A program made the translations under genes and the position numbers. Under the pieces are notes generated by a model. The model had not been told where the DNA came from. It did not search any database and worked only from the letters and a program-made list of their open reading frames with translations. Positions 48,439 to 64,000 of a stretch of 64,000 bases of DNA are shown here, piece after piece. Position 1 is the stretch's first letter; each line of letters begins with the position of its first letter. Source of the stretch: an uncultured Defluviitaleaceae bacterium (GTDB lineage Bacteria; Bacillota; Clostridia; Lachnospirales; WRBF01); NCBI GenBank assembly GCA_964533945.1, contig CAZHPA010000004.1:15180-79179 (forward strand). Reading direction: 5' to 3'.

Positions 48439-51063
48439 ATGGGACAAAAATATGTTTATATGTTTTCAGAGGGCGATGGCTCAATGAAAAATTTGCTTGG
48501 TGGAAAAGGCGCAAACCTTGCTGAAATGACAAAGCTTGGGCTTCCAATTCCTCCCGGTTTTATCGTAACAACTGAAAGCTGCACACTATATAACACTTCG
48601 GGTAAAGTTTTATCAGATGAAATTAAAGCGCAAATTGACGCTTGTATGGCAGAACTTGAAAAAATATCAGATAAAAAATTCGGCGATACAAAAAATCCGC
48701 TTCTAGTTTCCGTGCGTTCAGGCTCAAGAGCTTCAATGCCCGGTATGATGGATACAGTTTTAAATTTAGGCTTAAATGACGATGCCGTTTCTGGTCTTGC
48801 TACAGCAACAGGCAACGAACGTTTTGCATACGATTCATATAGACGTTTCATTATGATGTTTTCGGACGTTGTAATTGGTGTTTCAAAGCATAAATTTGAA
48901 AGGGTTTTAGATGAATTTAAAGAACAAAAAGGCGTTAAAGACGATTTAGATTTAACTGTTGAAGACTTAAAATCAATAGTTTCAAAATTTAAACAAATAT
49001 ATAGAGAAGACCAAGGAAAAGAATTCCCATCTGATGCTAAAGAACAATTGTATGAAGCAATTTGTGCCGTCTTTAGGTCTTGGGACAACCCTCGTGCTTT
49101 CGTATACCGCCGTATGCACGACATACCATATGAATGGGGTACAGCAGTAAACGTACAATCAATGGTATTTGGCAACATGGGTGATGAATCCGGAACAGGC
49201 GTTGTTTTTACAAGAAATGCTGCAACAGGCGAAAATGCAATTTATGGCGAATACATGATGAATGCGCAAGGCGAAGACGTTGTTGCCGGCGTTCGTACTC
49301 CTAAGCCTTTTGCCGAACTTAAAGACGAAATGCCTGAAATTTACGAACAATTTATAAAATATGCAAATCTTTTAGAAAATCACTACAAAGATATGCAAGA
49401 TATGGAAATTACAATCGAAAACAAAAAACTATACTTCCTTCAAACAAGAAACGGCAAAAGAACAGCTCAAGCTGCTTTAAAAATTGCTGTTGATATGGTT
49501 AATGAAGGATTAATTACAGAAGAAGAAGCAATTATGAAGGTAGACCCAAAACAATTAGACCAACTTCTTCACCCAACGTTTGATGCTGAATCTTTAAAAG
49601 CAGCTAAAAGCATTGGTAAAGCGCTTCCTGCTTCTCCTGGTGCTGCAACAGGTAAAATTTACTTTAATGCAGAAGACGCTAAAGAAGCTGTTGCAAGAGG
49701 CGAAAAAGTTGTTTTAGTTCGTCTTGAAACTTCACCGGAAGACATTGAAGGAATGTATGTTTCTGAAGGCGTTTTAACAGTTCGTGGCGGTATGACTTCT
49801 CATGCGGCAGTTGTTGCTCGCGGTATGGGAAGATGTTGTGTTTCTGGCTGTGAAAAAATTAAAATGAATGAAGAAGAAAAATGCTTTGAATTAGACGGTG
49901 CTACTTTTAAAGAAGGCGATTTCCTTTCATTAGATGGTACAACAGGCATAATTTACGCTGGTTCAATTAAAACTGTTACTCCTGAAATTTCTGGCGATTT
50001 TGCGAAATTTATGGCTTGGGCAGACAAAGCAAGAACATTAAAAGTTAGAACAAATGCAGACACTCCTGCAGATGCTAAAAAAGCTGTTGAATTTGGCGCT
50101 GAAGGAATCGGCTTAACGCGTACTGAACATATGTTCTTTGAAGAATCACGTTTGCCAAAAATGCGCAAAATGATTTTATCAGATACAGAAGAAGAAAGAC
50201 GCGCTGCATTAAATGAGTTGTTACCTTTCCAAAAGGCAGACTTTGTAGGTATATATGAAGCTATGGAAGAACGCCCTGTAACAATTCGTCTTTTAGACCC
50301 ACCGCTCCATGAATTTTTACCTAAAGAAGATGCTGATTTTGAAGCTTTGGCGAAAGACATGAACAAACCTGTTGCAGAATTAAAAACAAAAGCAACAAAC
50401 CTTCACGAATTAAACCCAATGATGGGTCACCGTGGTTGCCGCCTTGCTGTTAGCTATCCTGAAATTGCAGAAATGCAAACTAAAGCAATAATAGAAGCGG
50501 CTATTGAAGTTAAAAAGAACAAAGGCTATAACATTATTCCGGAAATAATGATTCCACTTGTAGGCGACACTAAAGAGTTTAAATTCGTTAGAGAAATCGT
50601 TGACAAAACTGCTAAAGCTTTAATTGAAGAAACAGGCATTGAATTAAATTATATGGTTGGTACTATGATTGAAATTCCAAGAGCTTGCTTAACAGCAGAT
50701 GAAATTGCAAAAGATGCAGAATTTTTCTCATTTGGAACAAACGATTTAACACAAATGACATTTGGTCTTTCCCGTGACGATGCAGGAAAAATATTAAACG
50801 ACTATATCGAAAAGAAAATTTACGAAGGCGACCCAACAGCAAAATTAGACCAAACAGGCGTTGGTTCATTAATGAAAATAGCTGTTGAAAAAGGACAAAC
50901 AACAAGACCAAACATTAAGCTTGGTATTTGCGGCGAACACGGAGGCGAACCTTCAAGCATAGATTTCTGCCATAGAATTGGGCTTAACTATGTTTCATGC
51001 TCACCATTTAGAGTTCCAATAGCAAGACTTGCAGCAGCACAAGCGGCAATTTCTAATAAGTAG
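48439..51063 (+). CDS. ppdK: Pyruvate, phosphate dikinase
   Basis: 874 aa with LLGGKGANLAEM, the phosphohistidine region GGMTSHAAVVARGMG, and a C-terminal PEP-utilising TIM barrel (FFSFGTNDLTQ). Confidence 0.95.
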   Translation: MGQKYVYMFSEGDGSMKNLLGGKGANLAEMTKLGLPIPPGFIVTTESCTLYNTSGKVLSDEIKAQIDACMAELEKISDKKFGDTKNPLLVSVRSGSRASMPGMMDTVLNLGLNDDAVSGLATATGNERFAYDSYRRFIMMFSDVVIGVSKHKFERVLDEFKEQKGVKDDLDLTVEDLKSIVSKFKQIYREDQGKEFPSDAKEQLYEAICAVFRSWDNPRAFVYRRMHDIPYEWGTAVNVQSMVFGNMGDESGTGVVFTRNAATGENAIYGEYMMNAQGEDVVAGVRTPKPFAELKDEMPEIYEQFIKYANLLENHYKDMQDMEITIENKKLYFLQTRNGKRTAQAALKIAVDMVNEGLITEEEAIMKVDPKQLDQLLHPTFDAESLKAAKSIGKALPASPGAATGKIYFNAEDAKEAVARGEKVVLVRLETSPEDIEGMYVSEGVLTVRGGMTSHAAVVARGMGRCCVSGCEKIKMNEEEKCFELDGATFKEGDFLSLDGTTGIIYAGSIKTVTPEISGDFAKFMAWADKARTLKVRTNADTPADAKKAVEFGAEGIGLTRTEHMFFEESRLPKMRKMILSDTEEERRAALNELLPFQKADFVGIYEAMEERPVTIRLLDPPLHEFLPKEDADFEALAKDMNKPVAELKTKATNLHELNPMMGHRGCRLAVSYPEIAEMQTKAIIEAAIEVKKNKGYNIIPEIMIPLVGDTKEFKFVREIVDKTAKALIEETGIELNYMVGTMIEIPRACLTADEIAKDAEFFSFGTNDLTQMTFGLSRDDAGKILNDYIEKKIYEGDPTAKLDQTGVGSLMKIAVEKGQTTRPNIKLGICGEHGGEPSSIDFCHRIGLNYVSCSPFRVPIARLAAAQAAISNK

Positions 51064-52310: not shown

Positions 52311-52515
52311 TTTTGTTGAAAATTGCAAGTTAAATTATAGCACAAGAACCTACTATTTTTATATAAAGCATATGTTATAACATTATTAAAAAATTGGGGT
52401 TAAAATATATAAAAACCTTATTAAAGCCATAAGTTAAATTATAACGCAAAAACGTATTATTTTATATCAAATATATGTTGCAACCTTGTTAAAAATTCGG
52501 AGTTGAATTACAATG
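52296..52515. repeat. Imperfect tandem repeat of about 100 bp (2.2 copies) that starts inside the cobO 3' end and ends at the chrA start codon
   Basis: Copies begin at 52296 (GGGGTTGAATTATAA), 52396 (GGGGTTAAAATATATAA) and 52499 (GGAGTTGAATTACAATG). The units share internal blocks such as AAGTTAAATTATA[G/A]C and ATATGTT. Confidence 0.7.
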
Positions 52516-53061
52516 CATAAAAAACATTACCTAAAACTGTTTATTTCAACATTTTATTTAAGCGCTTTTACGTTTGGCGGAGGATATGTTATAGTTTCTT
52601 TAATGAAGAAAAAATTTGTAGATAATTTAAAATGGATTGAAGAAGAAGAAATGTTAAATTTAATCGCAATAGCTCAAGCTTCCCCCGGAGCTGTTGCCGT
52701 TAACGCTTCCATTTTAATAGGATACCGTATTGGAGGAACTTTGGGGGCATTTATTGCAATATTAGGAACAGTTTTACCGCCGCTTATTATAATTTCTATA
52801 GTTTCTGTGTTTTATGCTTCTTTTCGCAACAACGAAATAATTAGCCGTGCGTTAAAAGCAATGCAACCTGCCGTTGCTGCTATAATATTTGATGTTGTAA
52901 TTAATATGGGGAAGAATACTGTTGAACAGAAAAAGAGTATGGCTATTTTTATTGGAGCTTTTATAGCAAACTATATATTTAAAATTAATGTTATTTATAT
53001 TATTGTAACTTGCGTAGTATTAGGCATTTTTCAAAGAAACGAAAAAGAGGAGAGGGCATGA
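52513..53061 (+). CDS. chrA: Chromate transporter family protein (short CHR, first half of a pair)
   Basis: About 180 aa and polytopic, with the FTFGGGYVIVSLM and IAIAQASPGAVAVN motifs typical of the CHR family. Confidence 0.85.
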   Translation: MHKKHYLKLFISTFYLSAFTFGGGYVIVSLMKKKFVDNLKWIEEEEMLNLIAIAQASPGAVAVNASILIGYRIGGTLGAFIAILGTVLPPLIIISIVSVFYASFRNNEIISRALKAMQPAVAAIIFDVVINMGKNTVEQKKSMAIFIGAFIANYIFKINVIYIIVTCVVLGIFQRNEKEERA

Positions 53062-53141
53062 ACCTTTTGAACACTATTTATGTCATCATAACTTGCATAA
53101 TATTAGGAGTTTTCAAAATAAGCAAAGGAGCAAAAGCATGA
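52987..53141. repeat. Tandem duplication with an 80-bp period covering the chrA-1 3' end and the ATGA stop/start junction
   Basis: 52991-53061 (TTATTTATATTATTGTAACTTGCGTAGTATTAGGCATTTTTCAAAG...GGCATGA) aligns with 53071-53141 (CTATTTATGTCATCATAACTTGCATAATATTAGGAGTTTTCAAAAT...AGCATGA). Confidence 0.8.
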
Positions 53142-53674
53142 TTTACTTAGAACTTTTTGTAAGTTTCTTTAAAATAGGGCTATTTACTATAGGCGGTGGC
53201 TATGCTGCAATACCTCTTATTCAAAATGAAGTTATAGATGTTAATAATTGGTTAACACTAGCACAATTTACAGATTTAATTACAATTGCCGAAATGACAC
53301 CTGGGCCCATAGCAATTAATTGTGCAACATTCGTTGGAATACAAGTTGGCGGCTTTTTGGGTGGCGTTGTTTCAACTATCGGCTGCATTTTTCCTTCTTG
53401 CATAATTGTTTCACTTCTTGCCTATTTATATTATAAATATAAAAATCTTGCAATAATTCAAAAGATTTTAAACAACCTAAGACCGGCTATTGTTGCTTTA
53501 ATTGCTTGCGCCGGATTGTCTATATTAAAGCTTTCAGTTTTAAGCGATTCTTATTCAATTAACGTAAAAGCCATTTTAATATTTATAGCCGTACTGTTTG
53601 CAATTAAAAAGTTTAAATTAAAAAATCCTATAATTGCAATGCTTGTCGCCGGTGTTATAGGAATATTAATGTAA
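53138..53674 (+). CDS. chrA: Chromate transporter family protein (short CHR, second half of a pair)
   Basis: FTIGGGYAAIPLI and IAEMTPGPIAINCATFVG motifs. ATG at 53138 follows AAAGGAG, so the ORF-track start at 53093 is rejected. Confidence 0.85.
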   Translation: MIYLELFVSFFKIGLFTIGGGYAAIPLIQNEVIDVNNWLTLAQFTDLITIAEMTPGPIAINCATFVGIQVGGFLGGVVSTIGCIFPSCIIVSLLAYLYYKYKNLAIIQKILNNLRPAIVALIACAGLSILKLSVLSDSYSINVKAILIFIAVLFAIKKFKLKNPIIAMLVAGVIGILM

Positions 53675-53736: not shown

Positions 53737-53766
53737 TTGATATTGTGTCGTAATATGTATTATAAT
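53737..53766 (+). promoter_or_regulatory. Putative sigma-A promoter for the vWA/tubulin-like cluster
   Basis: TTGATA, 18 nt, TATAAT, about 30 nt upstream of the GTG start. Confidence 0.45.
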
Positions 53767-53796
53767 AAAGTATATTTAATCGAAAGAGGGTGCATT

Positions 53797-55839
53797 GTGG
53801 TTAGAAAAATATTATGCTTTATCGTATTTATTTTTAGTGTATATACAGTATATACATACGCTGCTCAAAGCGCAAATCCAAACAATCATATTGATGCCGT
53901 GCTTGTAATTGATACAAGCAATTCAATGAATGGCAACGACCCCATGCACATAGCCGTTGAAGGCGTTAAGCTTTTTATTGATATGTTGGAACATAGCGGC
54001 TCAAGAGTTGGTTTTGTTGGGTTTAACGGAAGCGTTGTTTCTGAAATACCACTTACAGAAATTAACACATTTCAAGATAAAATAGATATTTTAGATAAAG
54101 TAGGCAAAATAAAATATACAGGCTATACAGACATTGGGCTTGCGCTTAAAACGGCAGAATCGCTTTTATTAAACACACAAGATAAAGGCAACAACCAAAT
54201 GATTTTAATGTTTACAGACGGCTTTGTTGAAGTTGACAGTAAAACAGGAAGAACAGAACAACAATCAAATCAGGAAATAGAAGACGTTTTGTCTTCGGCA
54301 ATGTCAAATTACCCTATATACACAATAGGCTTAAATAGCAGCGATAGAGTGGACAAAGATTTAATAGATAAAATAGCCAACCAAACAAGTGCTAAAAGCT
54401 ATATGACAAATAACGCCGAAGACTTGCCTGAAATTTTTAACGAAATTTTCGCAAGGCATATTAAATCAAATGTAATAAATGTAGGTTCAGTTATTGCCGA
54501 TGGAACAAATTATGAAACATTTGACATAAACATACCAAACCCAAACATAGCAGAAGCAAATATTGTTTTACTATCAGACAGCAAATTAATAGACGTAAGG
54601 TTAACAAACCCAAATAATCAAAATATTTTACTAACACAATCAAATGGAATTTATTATTCCAATTCGTCAAAATATTCTGTAATTAAAATTGTTAACCCAA
54701 TGCAAGGGGATTGGGTTTTGCATATTAAAGGCGCTAAGGGCAGCCAAATTAAAGTTAATTTAATTTATAACTACGACATTGTTCTTGAAGCCAAATTGCC
54801 AAAAGATGCAAAAGACGTTGTTAAAGGGGAAACTTTAAACGTTTCGGCTTTTATATCAGACCAAAACGGTACAACGCTTGGCAGTGATTTAATTTCTTCA
54901 TTTAGTGCAGAGCTTAATGTTTTAAATGAAACTGGTCAAATAATTGAAGCCGTTGCTATGAATCATGTTAAAGATAATGAATTTGCTGCAGTTTGCAACA
55001 TTCCAAACTATGATGGGCAAATAAGCATTATTGTAAAAGCCGCAGGTTCAGGGTTTTATAGAGAAAGCCAGCCTATTGTAATAGATTTAGAAAACAAGCC
55101 GCCAAAGCTTGAAAACCCTATATCAAATAAGTTTTATTTTTATTTGCCAATGGCTGTTTTAAATTCAACTATCAACTTAAACGAAGTTTTTAACGACCCA
55201 GATAATTTAGAAGATTTAGAATATAAGATTACAGCAGATAAAGATTACATAAGCTTCGATGAGTCAAACGGAAAAGCAAAAATAAAAACAAGCAAAATAT
55301 TAAATTTTGGAACAGCGGAAGTAATAATTGAATGCATAGACCCAGCCAAAGAAAAGGCAGAAGCAAGCTTTAAAATAATTTTAATACCAATTTTGCCTTT
55401 TGGCTTGGTAATTTTAATAGTTATAGGTTTGATAGCAATAAAAGCCGGAAAGCAAAAAAACATAAGGCTATCGGGCTACATTCAATGCATACTTTCCGTT
55501 GACGGTGTTAACGGAGCAAGCGAAATAACAAATACGCAGGCATATAAAGGCATAGTTAATATGTCGCAGTTTGTAGGCGAGCAAGTTTTAGAAAAATTGC
55601 CAGAACTTAAAAAAATTTCTTTTTGTCAATTAACACAATCAGGGAGCAAATTAGGTGAATTAGGCGGGGAAGCTTGGGAATTTAAAAATAAATCACGCTA
55701 CAAAATAAATAAAATGATGCTTGAATTAAAAGACGAAAAGTTTGTTATTGTTAAAGGAGAAACTTTTGAAATAAGAGAATTAAGAAGCAGTGATGATGAA
55801 AATGAAGGGGAAGTTTTGATAGTAACCTTTATAAAGTAG
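53797..55839 (+). CDS. Type-I membrane protein: signal peptide, extracytoplasmic vWA domain with complete MIDAS, beta-rich stalk, single TM segment, and a cytoplasmic tail domain of about 130 aa
   Basis: GTG at 53797 is 6 nt after AAAGAGGG. The signal peptide is VRKILCFIVFIFSVYTVYTYA/AQS. MIDAS elements are DTSNS (53911-53925), GYTDIG and MFTDG. The TM segment is ILIPILPFGLVILIVIGLIAI, followed by KAGKQK. Confidence 0.8.
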   Translation: MVRKILCFIVFIFSVYTVYTYAAQSANPNNHIDAVLVIDTSNSMNGNDPMHIAVEGVKLFIDMLEHSGSRVGFVGFNGSVVSEIPLTEINTFQDKIDILDKVGKIKYTGYTDIGLALKTAESLLLNTQDKGNNQMILMFTDGFVEVDSKTGRTEQQSNQEIEDVLSSAMSNYPIYTIGLNSSDRVDKDLIDKIANQTSAKSYMTNNAEDLPEIFNEIFARHIKSNVINVGSVIADGTNYETFDINIPNPNIAEANIVLLSDSKLIDVRLTNPNNQNILLTQSNGIYYSNSSKYSVIKIVNPMQGDWVLHIKGAKGSQIKVNLIYNYDIVLEAKLPKDAKDVVKGETLNVSAFISDQNGTTLGSDLISSFSAELNVLNETGQIIEAVAMNHVKDNEFAAVCNIPNYDGQISIIVKAAGSGFYRESQPIVIDLENKPPKLENPISNKFYFYLPMAVLNSTINLNEVFNDPDNLEDLEYKITADKDYISFDESNGKAKIKTSKILNFGTAEVIIECIDPAKEKAEASFKIILIPILPFGLVILIVIGLIAIKAGKQKNIRLSGYIQCILSVDGVNGASEITNTQAYKGIVNMSQFVGEQVLEKLPELKKISFCQLTQSGSKLGELGGEAWEFKNKSRYKINKMMLELKDEKFVIVKGETFEIRELRSSDDENEGEVLIVTFIK

Positions 55840-55863: not shown

Positions 55864-58800
55864 ATGCCATTAAACGAAACACTTAAAACCCATTTAAAAA
55901 GCAATTTAATGCGTGGTGTCGGAAGTGGTTTGCATTTAAAAAGCAGAAATTCAAAGCTTATAGATGCCCCAATTTTAGTTATAGGTTTAGGCGGAACAGG
56001 CGCAAACTCCTTAATTCGCCTAAAAAGCCTTATTAACGAAAGAATTAATTCAGATTTTAACAACGAAAAGCCTAAAAATATTGAATATTTAGCTATAGAT
56101 ACCGATATGTCAACAAAAGATTTTCAACATAAAGGCGTGTCTTTTTCAAAGGCAAATTCTGAAGTTTGCATTTATGCACATGCAAATCTAGGAAGAACAT
56201 ATGAAGATTTATGCAAGCGCCCCGAAAGCTTGCCTCACATTACAAGCTGGATTTCTCACGGCATGGACGTTAGCAAAATTACAAACGGCGCAGGCGGCGT
56301 TAGGCAAGTTGGAAGATTTTTAATGTTTAAAGAGTTTAACGACATTGAAAACAAAATTACAACTAAAGTTGAATCTATTTTAAACGGATATTCCGCCGAC
56401 AAAATGGTTTTTGTATTTATTGCAACAGGCGTTTCGGGCGGAACAGGAAGCGGAACTTTTTTAGATATTCCATATATCGTTAAAGAAATTTTAAGGCGAA
56501 AAGGGTTTAATGCCCAAATGCTAGGTTTTATATTTTTGCCCGACGTTAATATTAGCGTTATAGATAGAAATGACCACGCCAAAGTTCGTGCTATTAAGCG
56601 CAACGGCTTTGCTGCTTTAAAAGAACTAGATTTTTTAATGAACCTTGGCAATGAGGGTAACAGAGAACGCTTTGTTCAGGAATACAGCAGCAACTTTAAA
56701 GTTGATTACGGTGAACCTCCATATGATGTTTGCCATTTAGTTTCTACTATAAATAAAAGAGGATTAATAACTAACTCTATAGACGACTGCATGAACGTTG
56801 TTTCTGAAACAATTGCAAACTTTATTTCAGGCGAAAGTGGCGTTATATCAGGAGTTTCAGGAGGTTCAACAGATGATTTTTCCGTTGCACAATATATTTC
56901 AAATATTTCAGATACCATTAATACGTTTGTTGCAGGGCTTTCTGTTAAATATCCAATCAATTATAAATATTTGGCAATCGGCAGTTCATCAGGTGTTTTG
57001 CCTATGGACGACATATTAAACTACATTGCAAGCACATTATTTGAACGCATATATGAAATATACAACCGTTTGCCTGAAAAGTCGGAAGTTTTAAACTTTG
57101 CAAATATGCTTGGAATAAACAGAGAAGGAATTTATGTTGCTGTATGCAAAAACAGCGAATTGCCAACGTATGGGTACGATTTCGATACGCTAAAAGCAAA
57201 CCCAAACATTTTAAGACTTGCTTTTGAAGAAAGCATTGAAAAATCTTTATCTATAATCAAAGAAAACGTTAGCGATTTCATAGATTCCTTTAAAGAAAAC
57301 GCAAACAAAAAAATAGAAGAAGTATTTTTAGATAACAAAAAAGGCCCATACTTCGCTTCAAGATTAATTAGTTCTATAGAAAACTATTGCTTGCTTGCCC
57401 ATATTAAAGATTTAAGAAATAAGCTAGTGCTTGAAAAAGTAAATGATGCCGATATGGAAAGGCTTAGAAAAAATGTTGAATTAACACAACGAAAAATTGC
57501 AACTTCTGAACCTTTGCTTGGGTTTGGCAAAAATGGGCTTGCTGATAATCACATTAAAGCTTGCAATGAATATTATTCAAAGCGAATGTTTAATAACGTT
57601 TTTGACGGCATGATTAAATGCTTTGAAGCATTTTACAAATATTTAAATGACAAAAACGATGATTTATTCGATTTGCTTGCAGAAACAATTACATTACTTA
57701 AAAATATATTTGCAGATTATGGAAGCATTGACGGCGACATTTCCCTTACAAGTGAAGAAAGTACAACAACTTTAACATGGGACATAATAGATAAAAAAGT
57801 TTTAGCCGAAACTGTTAAGTTAATGATAAACGACGAAAGCGAAGTTAAATTTAACACAGTTATTGACGAATTTATTAAAGAACTTAACGCTAATTCCGCC
57901 ACATGGCTAAACTGCTCAAAGCCAAACGCTGTAGCAAAGCTAAACGATTTTATTAACAATAGGTTCGACAACATTCTTAATAAATCGCTTGACTTTTATA
58001 TAAGTAAGATTGCCAACGACGATAAAATTAGAATAGACAGCGAAGCACAGCAAATAACAGAAAAGCTTGCTAAAAATGCACAAGTTATGTTTCCTGTTAA
58101 CGTTTTCGGCGATAATTTAAACGCTTCTTTGTATAGCTATATGTCTGTTCCGTCTAACGCCGACATAATTAAAAGCAAACTTGAAGCCGATACAGGCGGC
58201 AAAATGATTAAACAAAGCATTATAACAAACCGTGTTTTTATGCTTAAAGTTAATTTGGTTTACCCTTTAATGGCATATAGAGAGCTTGAAAGCTATGAAG
58301 CGGAATACGAAAAGTTTTCGGAAGAAAGAGCCGGCATAGGAATGCATTTATACGAAAACAACACTAGAAATTGGAGGGAATTACCTTCTCCAATATATGA
58401 CAATGCTTGGTCACCAACATATAAAAACGAGCGCCTTAAAGCTTCAAACAACAAAATTAGAAGCTTATTTGATAAAGCGCTTAAATATAAATATATACAA
58501 TGGGACACTAAAGAAAACAAGGTTGCTTGCAAGTTTAAGCAGGAAATTAATATAAAGACGTTTTTAAATGAATGCAACATAGAAAATATTAACGACATAG
58601 ATTCAATAAGTGTTGCCAGCGCAAATTTGGCACTTAATAAGCTAAAATCTATTTTAGCCGAGGATAGTTGGCAAGGCGTTGAATATCTTTACGATTACAA
58701 GCTTAAAGATGGCGAGCCCGATTTGGAATTTTCGAAAGCGATTTTTATAAATATGCCAACGCTTAATAAGCATATGCAAAAAATGATTGACCAGCACGAA

Positions 58801-59253
58801 CAGTTGCTTGAAATTGAGCAAAAGCTTATGAAAATACAAGGAAGCGTTGCCGTTTATTCCCATTTTGCCGCCGTTTTATATACTTCTTTAATTAGAAAAA
58901 GCAGAGGCATATATAAATACACAGATAACAAACAATTAGAGAAAATTTTGCTTGAACCTAACACAAATGAGCTTGAATATATAGAATACTATTTGTATAA
59001 GGCATTCAAGCAAATGCCCGATGCCGAACGCGAATATTTAAACAGCACAGCAAGAAAAACTATAAACGAATGCAACGACGACGAATTTAAAAAATGCATA
59101 GACGTTATGGAAAACTTTGAAAATATGTTCAAAGAAAAGACCCAAAAGCTTACAACAACATATTTATCTGAATTTGAAGGAGACAAAAAGTCAAGCTTCT
59201 ATCAAGTTATGCGTGAAGAAATGAAAAAAGCGCTTGAAAAATATTCTGAATAA
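55864..59253 (+). CDS. Giant (1129 aa) tubulin/FtsZ-superfamily-like GTPase with a long helical C-terminal extension
   Basis: T1-like loop VIGLGGTGANS (55984-56007), T3-like NGAGGVRQVGR (56284-56316), and T4 tubulin signature GVSGGTGSGT (56428-56457). A possible T7/H8-like NGFAALKELDF follows. There is no signal peptide or TM segment. SD AAAGGAG. Confidence 0.75.
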   Translation: MPLNETLKTHLKSNLMRGVGSGLHLKSRNSKLIDAPILVIGLGGTGANSLIRLKSLINERINSDFNNEKPKNIEYLAIDTDMSTKDFQHKGVSFSKANSEVCIYAHANLGRTYEDLCKRPESLPHITSWISHGMDVSKITNGAGGVRQVGRFLMFKEFNDIENKITTKVESILNGYSADKMVFVFIATGVSGGTGSGTFLDIPYIVKEILRRKGFNAQMLGFIFLPDVNISVIDRNDHAKVRAIKRNGFAALKELDFLMNLGNEGNRERFVQEYSSNFKVDYGEPPYDVCHLVSTINKRGLITNSIDDCMNVVSETIANFISGESGVISGVSGGSTDDFSVAQYISNISDTINTFVAGLSVKYPINYKYLAIGSSSGVLPMDDILNYIASTLFERIYEIYNRLPEKSEVLNFANMLGINREGIYVAVCKNSELPTYGYDFDTLKANPNILRLAFEESIEKSLSIIKENVSDFIDSFKENANKKIEEVFLDNKKGPYFASRLISSIENYCLLAHIKDLRNKLVLEKVNDADMERLRKNVELTQRKIATSEPLLGFGKNGLADNHIKACNEYYSKRMFNNVFDGMIKCFEAFYKYLNDKNDDLFDLLAETITLLKNIFADYGSIDGDISLTSEESTTTLTWDIIDKKVLAETVKLMINDESEVKFNTVIDEFIKELNANSATWLNCSKPNAVAKLNDFINNRFDNILNKSLDFYISKIANDDKIRIDSEAQQITEKLAKNAQVMFPVNVFGDNLNASLYSYMSVPSNADIIKSKLEADTGGKMIKQSIITNRVFMLKVNLVYPLMAYRELESYEAEYEKFSEERAGIGMHLYENNTRNWRELPSPIYDNAWSPTYKNERLKASNNKIRSLFDKALKYKYIQWDTKENKVACKFKQEINIKTFLNECNIENINDIDSISVASANLALNKLKSILAEDSWQGVEYLYDYKLKDGEPDLEFSKAIFINMPTLNKHMQKMIDQHEQLLEIEQKLMKIQGSVAVYSHFAAVLYTSLIRKSRGIYKYTDNKQLEKILLEPNTNELEYIEYYLYKAFKQMPDAEREYLNSTARKTINECNDDEFKKCIDVMENFENMFKEKTQKLTTTYLSEFEGDKKSSFYQVMREEMKKALEKYSE

Positions 59254-59280: not shown

Positions 59281-59682
59281 ATGTTAAAAAAATCCCCAAA
59301 CCAAAGCCTGTGTCCATATTATTATATGGGCGGAGAGCTTCATCCGTTGAAATATGGAAGTTATTTTAATGATAAAACGGCTTTATTTAACATTATAGAT
59401 GCCGAGGAGCAGTTTATATTAGAATCATTCGGAATAAATAATAGTTGTATTTGGATTGATTTATATGAAACAGCGCTTGACCACAAAGTTATTAAAAAGC
59501 TTAGTATGCATTTAAATAATATAAATCATAAAATACGCAAGCTTTGCTTTGTAGGTTGTTCATGGGTTAATAAAAATAAGCTAAAAAATAAAATAAAAAT
59601 TAAAAATATGGATTTATCCAAACAAATTAAGTTTTTTTCAGACCCCAAATTGGCTAAACAGTGGTTAGTTGGAAATAGGTGA
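59281..59682 (+). CDS. Small hypothetical protein of the cluster (133 aa)
   Basis: SD GGGAGG lies 7 nt upstream. No motif I can name with confidence. Confidence 0.5.
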   Translation: MLKKSPNQSLCPYYYMGGELHPLKYGSYFNDKTALFNIIDAEEQFILESFGINNSCIWIDLYETALDHKVIKKLSMHLNNINHKIRKLCFVGCSWVNKNKLKNKIKIKNMDLSKQIKFFSDPKLAKQWLVGNR

Positions 59683-59686
59683 GTTT

Positions 59687-61609
59687 ATGTTAAAGCTTAC
59701 GCACCCTGTGCTTTATGTGTTTTTTGATGAACAATCAAAAGACACATTAAGGCTTCTTTGCAATGAAAAGTTTCAGAATACGCAAAGCATTGCTTATTTA
59801 AATATAAAAAGTAAAGACGACTTGGATTTTGATACATTAGTTAATATCAATAGAAGGTTTCTTGAAAAAGAATATTCAAGACCTTTTGAAAGGCGAATAT
59901 ATTTTATTGTTGATTCAAACAAAAAGCTTCTTGTTTCTTTATCAGATGCTGTTTTATTTATTAAAAGCTTTTTTGAAAATATAAACATAACACCAATAAT
60001 AGATATTTTCGCACTTACAGATGAAGCCAAGCTTCCAAATTTAAACATTCAGCAAGCAATTACTAATACATACGACGAACTTAAATTTTTGGCAACAAGT
60101 AATTTATGCAATATGGTATATATAATTTCCAACTTAAATAGCAAAGGCGTATTAATTAATGACTATATGCAGTTTTATCAAGCAATTGTTTTATGCTCCA
60201 TTTTAAAAGATTGTTCTAAAACAGGCTATGATGAGTTAAACTTTTTGCAAAACTGCGAAGCCAAAAATAAAGACGGCTATTTTTACACAGTTGGTATGAA
60301 AAAAATTAGTAAGCCTATAGAAATTTTAAGCTCTGTAATTCTTAAACAAATAATTGATGAAAATAGCATAATTTACGAAAAAAGTAAAGATAGTAATATT
60401 GTTGCAGAAATGCTTGAAAGCTTTTTAAAAACTATTGATGAAATATTTAAGGCAGCCGAACAAAAATATAGCTTAAACGTTAATTCTCTTGCAATAAACA
60501 TAGAAATGCAAAACAGGCTGTTTAATTGCAACGGGGATGCTTTAGATGCTTGCTTTGGAGAAAGCTATGTTGATTTATATTACGAAATTAACTACGAAAA
60601 AGAATGCGGCGTTATAGCTTCAAAAATTGTTTATGAACACTGCAAAACACTAAAAGAAGCCGTTTATGGCTGTATTGAAAATGAAAACGTTGGTTTTTTT
60701 GCAGTTAAGCGTATGCTTTACAAACTTAAGAGTGAGCATTTGCCTGAATTAAAAGAGCGTATAAAAGAAGAAATATTTAATGCAGAAAGTATGTTGCAAA
60801 CATGGCAAAATGAACAGCCTGTAATTACTAAAGGTTTGAAAAAAGTAAATGCATTTGGCAATGCGCTTTTTTTCCCTTTTGAGTTGGCACAGTTTTACAT
60901 AGCCCTTAAAAACGACTACTTTAAATGCAAAGCAAAACTTAGCGCTTTATTTCAATACGAAACCGTACTGCTTGAATTTATAAACAACTTTAAAAATATA
61001 TGCGAAAAGCTTAGTTTTAATTGCGATAAATTAAACGGATTTATAAAATTAAGCCTTAGCGAAAAACCAACGCTAATCGCTGAAAACTTCGAGCAATATT
61101 ATTCAAATAAAGCTTGTATGTATATTGCAAATAATTTTAAAAGCTACTTTAAACAACTATATAAAGATTTTTATAAATTAGGATTTGAAAATATCGAAGC
61201 ATTGTACAAAGAGTGCAACGCATATATTAGCAAGCTTATAGGAAGTGATAGCTTTAACTTAGATATATACAGCGAAATATACGAGCGGATTAAAAGTAAT
61301 ATAAGTACAGAATTTAAAACCGAAGAAAGCATAGCAAGACTTTTAATCGAAGAAATAAAAGAGGACAAAATTTATTTTTCAAAGCTTACATCGGCAGCTA
61401 ACTTTTTTGATAGTGTTTGCCTAATTACAGGTGATGGACAACTTGTTGAAAAACTTTCCGAAAAAAATACATTGGGTCATTTAAATGTATTTTTTGATTT
61501 ATTTCTTAACCTTAATAATTTTAATGAGGGCGAACAGCTTGATGTAGTATACTTTATTGGGAAATTTTCAATAGAACAAATGCATTATTCAAACCTATAT
61601 AAGCTATAA
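59687..61609 (+). CDS. Hypothetical cytoplasmic protein of the cluster (about 640 aa)
   Basis: ATG at 59687 is 4 nt after the upstream stop, and AGGTGAG overlaps that stop. TTG at 59669 is an alternative start. The N-terminus alternates beta and alpha segments, and the remainder looks helical. Confidence 0.55.
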   Translation: MLKLTHPVLYVFFDEQSKDTLRLLCNEKFQNTQSIAYLNIKSKDDLDFDTLVNINRRFLEKEYSRPFERRIYFIVDSNKKLLVSLSDAVLFIKSFFENINITPIIDIFALTDEAKLPNLNIQQAITNTYDELKFLATSNLCNMVYIISNLNSKGVLINDYMQFYQAIVLCSILKDCSKTGYDELNFLQNCEAKNKDGYFYTVGMKKISKPIEILSSVILKQIIDENSIIYEKSKDSNIVAEMLESFLKTIDEIFKAAEQKYSLNVNSLAINIEMQNRLFNCNGDALDACFGESYVDLYYEINYEKECGVIASKIVYEHCKTLKEAVYGCIENENVGFFAVKRMLYKLKSEHLPELKERIKEEIFNAESMLQTWQNEQPVITKGLKKVNAFGNALFFPFELAQFYIALKNDYFKCKAKLSALFQYETVLLEFINNFKNICEKLSFNCDKLNGFIKLSLSEKPTLIAENFEQYYSNKACMYIANNFKSYFKQLYKDFYKLGFENIEALYKECNAYISKLIGSDSFNLDIYSEIYERIKSNISTEFKTEESIARLLIEEIKEDKIYFSKLTSAANFFDSVCLITGDGQLVEKLSEKNTLGHLNVFFDLFLNLNNFNEGEQLDVVYFIGKFSIEQMHYSNLYKL

Positions 61610-63056: not shown

Positions 63057-63725
63057 GTGGAGTTAGACATAGTTAATGTTTTTAAAGACGAGGAGCAATC
63101 GTTTTTTATAAAAAATTTAAACGGCAAAGTTTTAGAAAGTGGAATAATTATGCTAAATTGGGATTGGCCTGAAGTGCATTCGGATATGGACGGAGTTTAT
63201 ATATTTGAAATTAAAGACGAAAGCGAAGATTTGGAAACACTTGTTGAACGCTTTAACGAAATGGAAACACCCCCAATATATATACCACGGAAAGCTTTTG
63301 GCGGAGAAAAATTTAAATGGCGAGAAGCAATGAAAGAAAAAAAACTGCAATTAAAACTTTTCCCTGTTAAAACAAATAAGTATAAAGCTATTATATATAG
63401 GCAAACATCTGGAAACTGCACGCAAGTTTTTTATAAGCCCGTAAGCTTAAAAAGAAAAGTTTTATATAGGCATATTAATTTTAAAACTAAAATAGCAACA
63501 TTCGAGTTCGAGAAAAAAATGCTTTTTCTTTTGAATGAATTGCCAATAGATTGTTTGCTCTTTTGCAAATATAATAAAAAGACAATGGTTCCAATTTGCT
63601 ACTACCCAGTTAATTTAGAAGTTTTATGCAATTCATCTTACGAAATTGCAATTGAAAGCAGCTGCAACATTGATTTAATTTGTAACGATAAATATAACGG
63701 CGCTATTGTAGTTAAAGACTTTTAG
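63057..63725 (+). CDS. Hypothetical protein of the cluster (about 222 aa)
   Basis: GTG at 63057 is 6-7 nt after GGGAGGTG. No motif recognised. Confidence 0.5.
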   Translation: MELDIVNVFKDEEQSFFIKNLNGKVLESGIIMLNWDWPEVHSDMDGVYIFEIKDESEDLETLVERFNEMETPPIYIPRKAFGGEKFKWREAMKEKKLQLKLFPVKTNKYKAIIYRQTSGNCTQVFYKPVSLKRKVLYRHINFKTKIATFEFEKKMLFLLNELPIDCLLFCKYNKKTMVPICYYPVNLEVLCNSSYEIAIESSCNIDLICNDKYNGAIVVKDF

Positions 63726-63758: not shown

Positions 63759-64000
63759 ATGGGCAGAGAAGTTAAATGTTTTTTCTGTTTTGAATACTTT
63801 AAGCCAGAAGAAGCGCACTTTAGGGCAAAAAAGCATATTAAAAAAATAGATAGCCTAAGCGAAGACGAGTATGTCGTTGATGAAAAATTAAAAGCTTACT
63901 ATAAAAAATTTTTGCAATATGATGATGACAGTGCAGAAAGTGCCGCAAGGCTTCTTCCAACGTTTAAAATAGACCAAAACCGAAAAATTGTTGAAGTTAG
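63759..64000 (+). CDS. Hypothetical protein, 3' partial (runs off the window), absent from the ORF track
   Basis: ATG at 63759 is 8 nt after AAAGGAG. The frame is open for 80 codons to the window end. The N-terminus is MGREVKCFFCFEYFKPEEAHFRAKK. Confidence 0.45.
   Translation, partial: MGREVKCFFCFEYFKPEEAHFRAKKHIKKIDSLSEDEYVVDEKLKAYYKKFLQYDDDSAESAARLLPTFKIDQNRKIVEV

Follow-up and report, generated by a model that had tools for sequence, protein, structure and literature searches.

In a 64,000-nucleotide stretch of DNA from an uncultured Defluviitaleaceae bacterium (GenBank assembly GCA_964533945.1, contig CAZHPA010000004.1; hereafter 'the window') we examined a gene, here termed vWA1, that encodes a protein with a von Willebrand factor A (vWA) domain and is followed immediately by a gene for a tubulin homologue. 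We show that vWA1, as modelled, carries the hallmarks of a type I membrane protein, with a head competent for a metal ion-dependent adhesion site (MIDAS) and a stalk predicted outside the cell, one transmembrane helix and a folded tail predicted inside it. With a probability that we put at about 0.6, vWA1 is the exported, membrane-anchored part of an operon conserved in Firmicutes and links binding at the cell surface to a GTP-dependent assembly in the cytoplasm. The features that bear on this proposal are as follows.

53797..55839, + strand: vWA1 gene, encoding a predicted 680-residue type I membrane protein (signal peptide, MIDAS vWA domain, three beta-sandwiches, transmembrane helix, cytoplasmic tail domain)
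53797..53862, + strand: signal-peptide-like N-terminus, residues 1-22 (MVRK, a hydrophobic core, then TYA with AQ following)
53890..54459, + strand: vWA domain, residues 32-221, with MIDAS residues D39-S41-S43, T111 and D141; alpha/beta in the AlphaFold2 model
54472..54795, + strand: beta-sandwich 1, residues 226-333, conserved along with the vWA head; weak GBD_Hemicentin-like signal
54832..55089, + strand: beta-sandwich 2, residues 346-431, variable (25% mean pairwise identity)
55129..55389, + strand: beta-sandwich 3, residues 445-531 (26% mean pairwise identity), missing from 42 of 75 homologues
55390..55461, + strand: transmembrane helix, residues 532-555, single, acidic before and basic after
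55462..55839, + strand: tail domain, residues 556-680, about 125 residues, predicted to be folded and mostly beta, family-restricted
55864..59253, + strand: FtsZl1/Tubulin_2 gene, 1129 residues, with GLGGTGAN at residue 41 and SGGTGSG at residue 191; without a transmembrane segment
61764..63035, + strand: vWA2 gene, 423 residues, polytopic (three transmembrane segments, vWA domain, three transmembrane segments), with intact MIDAS motifs and a predicted N-in, vWA-out topology

Architecture and predicted topology of vWA1

The topologies of both vWA proteins were assigned from hydropathy, the positive-inside rule, conservation and AlphaFold2 modelling. The vWA1 protein begins with MVRK, continues with ILCFIVFIFSVYTVY and then carries TYA and AQS on either side of a putative cleavage point, which is the n-, h- and c-region layout of signal peptides. 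(A simple scan for -3/-1 cleavage sites proved too permissive and was not used as evidence.) The full-length AlphaFold2 model, built with an alignment of 75 members as input, has a mean predicted local distance difference test score (pLDDT) of 91.4; at its N-terminus it places a helix over residues 2-20, followed by a low-confidence linker at residues 21-25.

Residues 33-215 match the Pfam VWA family (PF00092) with an E-value of 8.4e-18, the score of 65.6 bits lying above the gathering cut-off of 23.8. Across 75 aligned full-length homologues, positions D39, S41, S43, D112 and D141 do not vary and T111 is kept in at least 90%, so that the MIDAS is intact throughout the vWA1 family. The stalk that follows (residues 226-531, about 310 residues) is modelled with high pLDDT as three beta-sandwiches. 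The first of these matches GBD_Hemicentin-like (PF23560) in 42 of the 75 members, with a best E-value of 9e-7 and a value of 0.022 for the window protein itself, and the stalks of some homologues match Big_9 and Cadherin-like families. Because the third sandwich is absent from more than half of the homologues, the length of the stalk varies across the family, with one or two further Ig-like domains beyond sandwich 1. The single transmembrane helix, whose Kyte-Doolittle hydropathy peaks at 3.04, is followed directly by KAGKQKNIR, and the AlphaFold2 model then builds a C-terminal, mostly beta domain over residues 561-678.

This layout is a property of the family. A search of 5.8 billion proteins returned 186 relatives of vWA1 at E <= 1e-5, from Paenibacillus, Brevibacillus, Herbinix, Defluviitaleaceae and many other assemblies; the statistics that follow were taken over the 116 homologues of at least 560 residues among the best 120 of these. 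A DxSxS motif lies near the N-terminus in 115 of them, and the C-proximal transmembrane segment, whose hydropathy peaks at 2.96 on average, is followed by a tail of 91-141 residues. In the 15 residues flanking that segment on either side, lysine and arginine together average 0.97 before it versus 3.82 after it (with more after it in 113 of the 116), and aspartate and glutamate average 2.66 before versus 0.72 after. Mean pairwise identity is 45% for the vWA domain and 42% for sandwich 1, as compared with 20% for the transmembrane helix, 24% for the tail and the similarly low values of sandwiches 2 and 3. Given this contrast, the predicted exposed head, comprising the vWA domain and sandwich 1, is the constant part of vWA1.

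The second vWA protein of the operon contains three hydrophobic segments, a vWA domain (Pfam E-value 3e-12, with DNSGS, GGT and SDG motifs) and three further hydrophobic segments. Its N-terminus, second loop and C-terminal tail are rich in lysine and arginine and its first loop is acidic, a pattern that fits a topology with the N-terminus in, the vWA domain out and the C-terminus in. Searching yielded three homologues of vWA2, and further orthologues were picked from related loci; the same pattern recurs in three orthologues, comprising two database homologues and the protein of Paenibacillus durus. The tubulin homologue matches Pfam Tubulin_2 (PF13809) with an E-value of 2e-65 and 221.8 bits against a cut-off of 27 and is presumably cytoplasmic; hydropathy analysis revealed no membrane segment in it or in the other soluble proteins of the cluster.

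These results agree with most of what the initial annotation of this DNA had proposed for the two vWA proteins. A signal peptide followed by a vWA domain with an intact MIDAS, a single transmembrane helix with basic residues on its inner side, a second vWA domain exposed outside between two sets of three membrane segments with its N-terminus in, and the predicted placing of both vWA domains outside and of the tubulin-like GTPase in the cytoplasm are all borne out by the motifs, profile matches, charge patterns and orthologues described above. The beta-rich stalk and the tail were likewise found where they had been described, with the tail forming a conserved domain that is folded in the model; their lengths required revision from about 330 to about 310 residues and from about 130 to about 125 residues, respectively.

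The tail domain and the surrounding operon

The tail domain, modelled alone from 35 sequences, reached a pLDDT of 81. It matches no Pfam family even at E <= 10, a search of its profile against the sequences of the PDB returned nothing relevant, and Foldseek found no significant match for it either in the PDB (best E-value 0.07) or among the viral models of BFVD. A PilZ domain, or any other known domain, was accordingly rejected as an identity for it. The highest TM-scores (0.36-0.43, with E-values of at least 0.38) were to SMAD-MH2 domains, IRF association domains and one FHA domain, which is a weak hint that the modelled tail resembles a SMAD/FHA-like sandwich. An assignment as an FHA domain was considered and discarded: no FHA profile matches the tail, and the residues that bind phosphothreonine in such domains (GR, SxxH and NG) are not conserved, G560 being the only invariant position.

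When the tail profile was run against 1.84 billion representative proteins, 171 matches were obtained at E <= 0.001, nearly all of them in proteins of 580-700 residues and at the very C-terminal end. Most of the shorter matches look like fragments, and a few are short proteins with a signal peptide, a transmembrane helix and the tail. The domain is always placed after a transmembrane helix and, in proteins that look complete, at the extreme C-terminus; it is thus a family-restricted, membrane-proximal domain, predicted to be cytoplasmic. The same tail (E-value 1e-7) also occurs on a distant vWA protein from a Lachnospiraceae metagenome-assembled genome (MAG), where that protein heads another operon (L014:961-11607). 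The operon encodes a 727-residue protein of no named family, small proteins, DnaJ, two FHA proteins, two PP2C-like phosphatases and a TPR domain, and contains no Tubulin_2 gene.

The remaining features of the vWA1 operon in the window are these.

53737..53766, + strand: sigma70-like promoter match (TTGATA-18-TATAAT, 11 of 12 positions), the best in the region, 31 nucleotides upstream of the GTG at 53797
59281..59682, + strand: 133-residue open reading frame (ORF) without a match to any family, observed in the lineage of the window alone
59687..61609, + strand: 640-residue helical protein (646 or 640 residues depending on the start), candidate degenerate tubulin-like paralogue
63057..63725, + strand: 222-residue protein (227 or 222 residues depending on the start), in the same position as the gene for a protein of about 210 residues in related operons
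63759..64000, + strand: DO-GTPase2, first 80 codons (242 bases), the gene running off the end of the window

The Logan assemblies of SRR10912417 and SRR10912418 contain contigs identical to the window, and these go on with the whole of DO-GTPase2 (462 residues, PF19993; L001:13030-14418) and then a GAP1-N2/GAP1-M gene, the domains of which (PF20013 and PF20014) are present in L001 beyond the end of the window and also at the related loci L004 and L005. These two genes identify the system, although they lie mostly outside the window. The same gene order was found in Paenibacillus durus and other Paenibacillus, in Neobacillus niacini, in a Bacillus species and in a Clostridiales MAG: vWA1, Tubulin_2 (1125-1134 residues), a large helical protein (604-830 residues), vWA2 (403-428 residues), a protein of about 210 residues, DO-GTPase2 and GAP1. 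One Defluviitaleaceae locus is a variant that lacks vWA2. Tubulin_2 follows vWA1 immediately at all eight of the related loci with enough downstream DNA, with a gap of 12-100 nucleotides or an overlap; in the window, 24 nucleotides separate the vWA1 stop from the Tubulin_2 start. No terminator-like site was found on the + strand within the cluster.

The partners of intermediate position are far more divergent, and orthologues of the 640/830-residue and of the approximately 210-residue proteins are undetectable by BLASTP or phmmer. The 640-residue protein has no Pfam match and no GGGTGSG motif, and BLASTP detects no similarity between it and either Tubulin_2 or the Paenibacillus 830-residue protein. 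Alignment by hhalign of nine of its positional orthologues with nine Tubulin_2 orthologues, however, gave a probability of 84% and an E-value of 7e-6 over 127 columns, pairing residues 129-255 with Tubulin_2 residues 275-428; judging from these profiles, the gene probably encodes a second, degenerate paralogue of the tubulin-like kind. A gene for a protein of about 210-220 residues always lies between vWA2 and DO-GTPase2 (for example, L004:19099-19740). The window's 222-residue protein and its positional orthologues align with an hhalign probability of 21%, too low to establish homology, which leaves either very fast divergence or non-orthologous replacement. The 133-residue ORF has no counterpart in the related operons that we examined and is left uncalled in one of the two identical contigs. 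It could be a small gene peculiar to this lineage, or no gene at all; the idea that it is the split N-terminus of the 830-residue protein was rejected, as the two share no similarity.

The start of vWA1 itself deserves comment. Public gene calls begin it at an ATG at 53755, 42 bases further 5', which yields a protein of 694 residues, and the ORF that includes the GTG at 53797 extends over 53737-55839 on the + strand. We favour GTG 53797 on sequence grounds, because a Shine-Dalgarno sequence, AAAGAGGG, sits 6 nucleotides 5' of it and because the best sigma70-like site of the region lies inside the longer alternatives. The promoter match is suggestive and no stronger than that, since the total number of promoter-like sites in the region does not exceed the chance level given by shuffled sequence. 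The GC content is 33.9%. Directly upstream of the operon, at 52513-53674, are two adjoining genes of the chromate-transporter family (182 and 193 residues, a split ChrA pair) and a gene for a CobO-type corrinoid adenosyltransferase, and a PPDK gene lies further upstream at 48439-51063. The operon is set in ordinary chromosome with housekeeping flanks and no island.

A possible transmembrane link and its alternatives

The arrangement of these proteins suggests a mechanism in which the head of vWA1 would use its metal ion to bind an acidic residue on a ligand that is conserved and extracytoplasmic, a component of the cell envelope and the ectodomain of vWA2 both being candidates. A conserved ligand is argued for by the contrast between the well-conserved head and the much lower identity of the remaining stalk, the transmembrane helix and the tail. 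On the other side of the membrane the tail may tether or recruit the cytoplasmic tubulin-like proteins, in the manner in which ZipA, FtsA and SepF act for FtsZ; this role is suggested by a conserved folded tail that is encoded next to tubulin-like and GTPase components, all of them soluble and lacking any membrane segment. DO-GTPase and GAP1 would then switch the assembly of the polymer, and a binding event at the surface would in this way be physically connected, across the membrane, to a GTP-dependent assembly in the cytoplasm. Transmembrane coupling through vWA1 is plausible on the predicted architecture; the short distance or overlap between vWA1 and Tubulin_2, the cluster's freedom from + strand terminator-like sites and the narrow distribution of the tail, always behind a transmembrane helix, count in its favour.

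Several points weigh against this proposal. Both the cleavage of the vWA1 signal peptide and the topology of the protein are predictions drawn from heuristics, and the function that we propose for the tail is not implied by homology, given that neither its structure nor its sequence has a significant match. Moreover, two distant tail-bearing vWA proteins, the one in L014 described above and another in L015 that stands alone, are not accompanied by Tubulin_2. It follows that the tail also occurs apart from tubulin; a strict co-occurrence of the two is rejected as an absolute rule, and the distribution suggests that the domain is used in more than one membrane-proximal system. Finally, the literature that we searched yielded no experimental study of this system, of the FtsZl1/Tubulin_2 family or of DO-GTPase/GAP1.

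Among the alternatives, the one that survives best is that the operon is a conflict system, in which the vWA heads would detect an invader such as a phage, or damage to the envelope, and the tubulin-like assembly would be the effector. The class of gene neighbourhood has been interpreted in that way (Kaur et al. 2020, PMC7159879), and the cytoplasmic partners diverge at the rapid pace noted above. Set against this, none of the six proteins of the cluster matched a PADLOC defence model at E <= 0.01, on which ground membership in a known defence system was rejected, and tblastn recovered no member of the vWA1 family from plasmids or phages at E <= 1e-10, by which an origin in mobile elements was likewise discarded. 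The flanking genes (PPDK, CobO, chromate transporter) are those of a housekeeping region as opposed to a defence island, and the exposed head is the most conserved part of vWA1, where hypervariability would be expected of a sensor of invaders. We regard a role in conflict as possible, on the unlikely side.

A static role for vWA1 would explain much of the same architecture. The protein would then be an adhesin or wall-binding protein whose tail fixes a tubulin-like filament to the membrane, or simply stabilises the protein, and no signal would cross. FtsZ tethers such as ZipA act as passive membrane anchors, and a single transmembrane helix bearing a folded tail is in keeping with a passive role of this type; a conserved head would also be expected if the ligand were a constant component of the wall. 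What such an anchor does not account for is the retention in the operon of two regulatory GTPase components (DO-GTPase2 and GAP1) and of two vWA proteins with a MIDAS. Domains of the vWA type are typically conformationally switchable, as in the I-domains of integrins. An anchor that transmits nothing seems to us rather improbable.

Many bacterial vWA partners of NTPases are cytoplasmic, and vWA1 might by that precedent be a co-chaperone of the tubulin-like protein of the MoxR/CoxE type, with an N-terminal stretch that is no export signal and a vWA domain inside the cell. We consider this highly improbable in view of the basic n-region and hydrophobic core found throughout the family, the charge asymmetry at the second transmembrane helix (which fits a C-terminus inside the cell in 113 of 116 homologues), the Ig-like domains of the stalk (Big_9 and Cadherin-like in homologues), which are typically extracytoplasmic, and the agreement of the literature on exported vWA partners (PMC2875224 and PMC7159879).

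The transmembrane link that we propose could take a stronger form, namely a true prokaryotic connection between an adhesion receptor and the cytoskeleton. Metal-dependent binding of a ligand by the exposed head, alone or together with vWA2, would act through the transmembrane helix on a hitherto undescribed SMAD/FHA-like tail that nucleates or releases a tubulin-family polymer under the control of DO-GTPase and GAP1, with the signal running outside-in or inside-out. If true, this would amount to signalling in one or the other direction between the surface and a bacterial tubulin homologue; we think it doubtful in this full form. The vWA1 data fit a tether as well as a transducer, and immunity as well as envelope remodelling.

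Members of the FtsZl1/Tubulin_2 family and DO-GTPase/GAP1 systems occur widely across Firmicutes and Actinobacteria. At stake is whether a wired connection runs from the cell surface to a bacterial tubulin homologue, and whether the system serves immunity or the remodelling of the envelope. A predicted type I receptor with a small, family-restricted tail, encoded beside a tubulin homologue, offers a concrete entry point to both questions.

Comparison with known systems

The cluster in the window is a rather divergent member of two classes that have been described by computation and that coincide here, namely the FtsZl1-vWA operons and the Firmicutes tubulin theme of the GAP1-N2 DO-GTPase systems. 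Makarova and Koonin (2010, Biol Direct, PMC2875224) established the FtsZl1 family, described operons in which it is accompanied by vWA proteins with an intact MIDAS, by a GTPase and by membrane proteins, and proposed a function in membrane remodelling; Reviewer 1 of that paper remarked that several of the vWA partners have signal peptides, yet FtsZl1 is cytoplasmic. Like the operon described here, theirs place FtsZl1 (which equals Pfam Tubulin_2) next to a gene for a MIDAS-intact vWA protein, in some cases with a signal peptide or transmembrane segment, and include a GTPase. They differ in having OmpA partners in Gram-negative bacteria, which are absent here, and that study contains no analysis of a tail domain.

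Kaur, Burroughs, Iyer and Aravind (eLife 2020, PMC7159879) described the tubulin theme with two tubulin genes and interpreted it as a conflict system acting near the membrane. The match extends to Tubulin_2, to two vWA genes, of which one is polytopic with its vWA domain external, to DO-GTPase2, GAP1-N2 and the phylum, and probably to a second gene of the tubulin-like kind; the 133-residue ORF is an addition of the window's lineage. The first vWA protein is described there as 'fused to YtkA', and in the text available to us the signal peptide, single transmembrane helix and folded tail are not spelled out. YtkA (PF13115) matched 3 of the 75 homologues at E < 0.05 (best E-value 0.008); for the window protein no YtkA match came up with the limit raised to E <= 10, and its stalk is modelled as Ig-like beta-sandwiches. 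The initial annotation had presented an external vWA domain paired with a cytoplasmic tubulin homologue as a notable topology; in the sense of new, that point was anticipated by both papers.

Weak NCBIfam matches link the cluster to BatA/BatB, in which a vWA domain is also flanked by transmembrane segments. The scores of 27-35 bits fall far short of the cut-offs of 350-380, and the operon partners of those proteins are different, so that membership in that group was rejected.

Among solved structures, Foldseek ranked an actinobacterial vWA protein (4fx5) first against the vWA1 model in the PDB and the anthrax toxin receptor ANTXR2/CMG2 (9rt4, vWA plus Ig-like domain, E-value 8e-12, matched over the vWA domain and the sandwich after it) second, with further matches to Cav alpha2delta, integrin I-domains and headpieces, ITIH1 and VWF A2. 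By this ranking the closest solved protein with the same order of domains is an anthrax toxin receptor and not an integrin. ANTXR2/CMG2 and ANTXR1/TEM8 share with vWA1 the succession of signal peptide, MIDAS vWA domain, Ig-like region, single transmembrane helix and cytoplasmic tail, at an identity of 12-19% that implies a common architecture and vWA fold and no orthology. They have one Ig-like domain where vWA1 has three sandwiches. The ANTXR tail is long, largely unstructured and coupled to the actin cytoskeleton, whereas that of vWA1 is predicted to be a small folded domain, with a tubulin homologue as its neighbour.

Integrin receptors with alpha-I or beta-I domains offer a looser parallel, comprising an extracellular MIDAS vWA fold, a beta-sandwich stalk, a single transmembrane helix, a cytoplasmic tail and the concept of a link to the cytoskeleton. 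The integrin logic put forward in the initial annotation holds at the level of this architecture and of the Foldseek matches to I-domains (target-normalised TM-score of 0.73-0.75 for that of integrin alpha1), and does not extend to membership: residues 549-680 of vWA1 contain no NPxY or NxxY motif of the talin- or kindlin-binding type, the tail is modelled as a folded domain of about 125 residues in place of a short peptide, and the partner is of the tubulin family instead of being linked to actin. Integrins are moreover obligate alpha/beta heterodimers, a pairing for which vWA1 offers no evidence. The likeness is thus an analogy of logic.

Taken against these precedents, the operon reveals no new kind of system, its gene set and exported vWA domains being already on record in the two papers cited above. 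What the present analysis adds to them is the predicted type I layout of vWA1 with its folded tail, the constant position of vWA1 just before Tubulin_2 at the eight related loci, the resemblance to the anthrax toxin receptors and the definition of the tail family.

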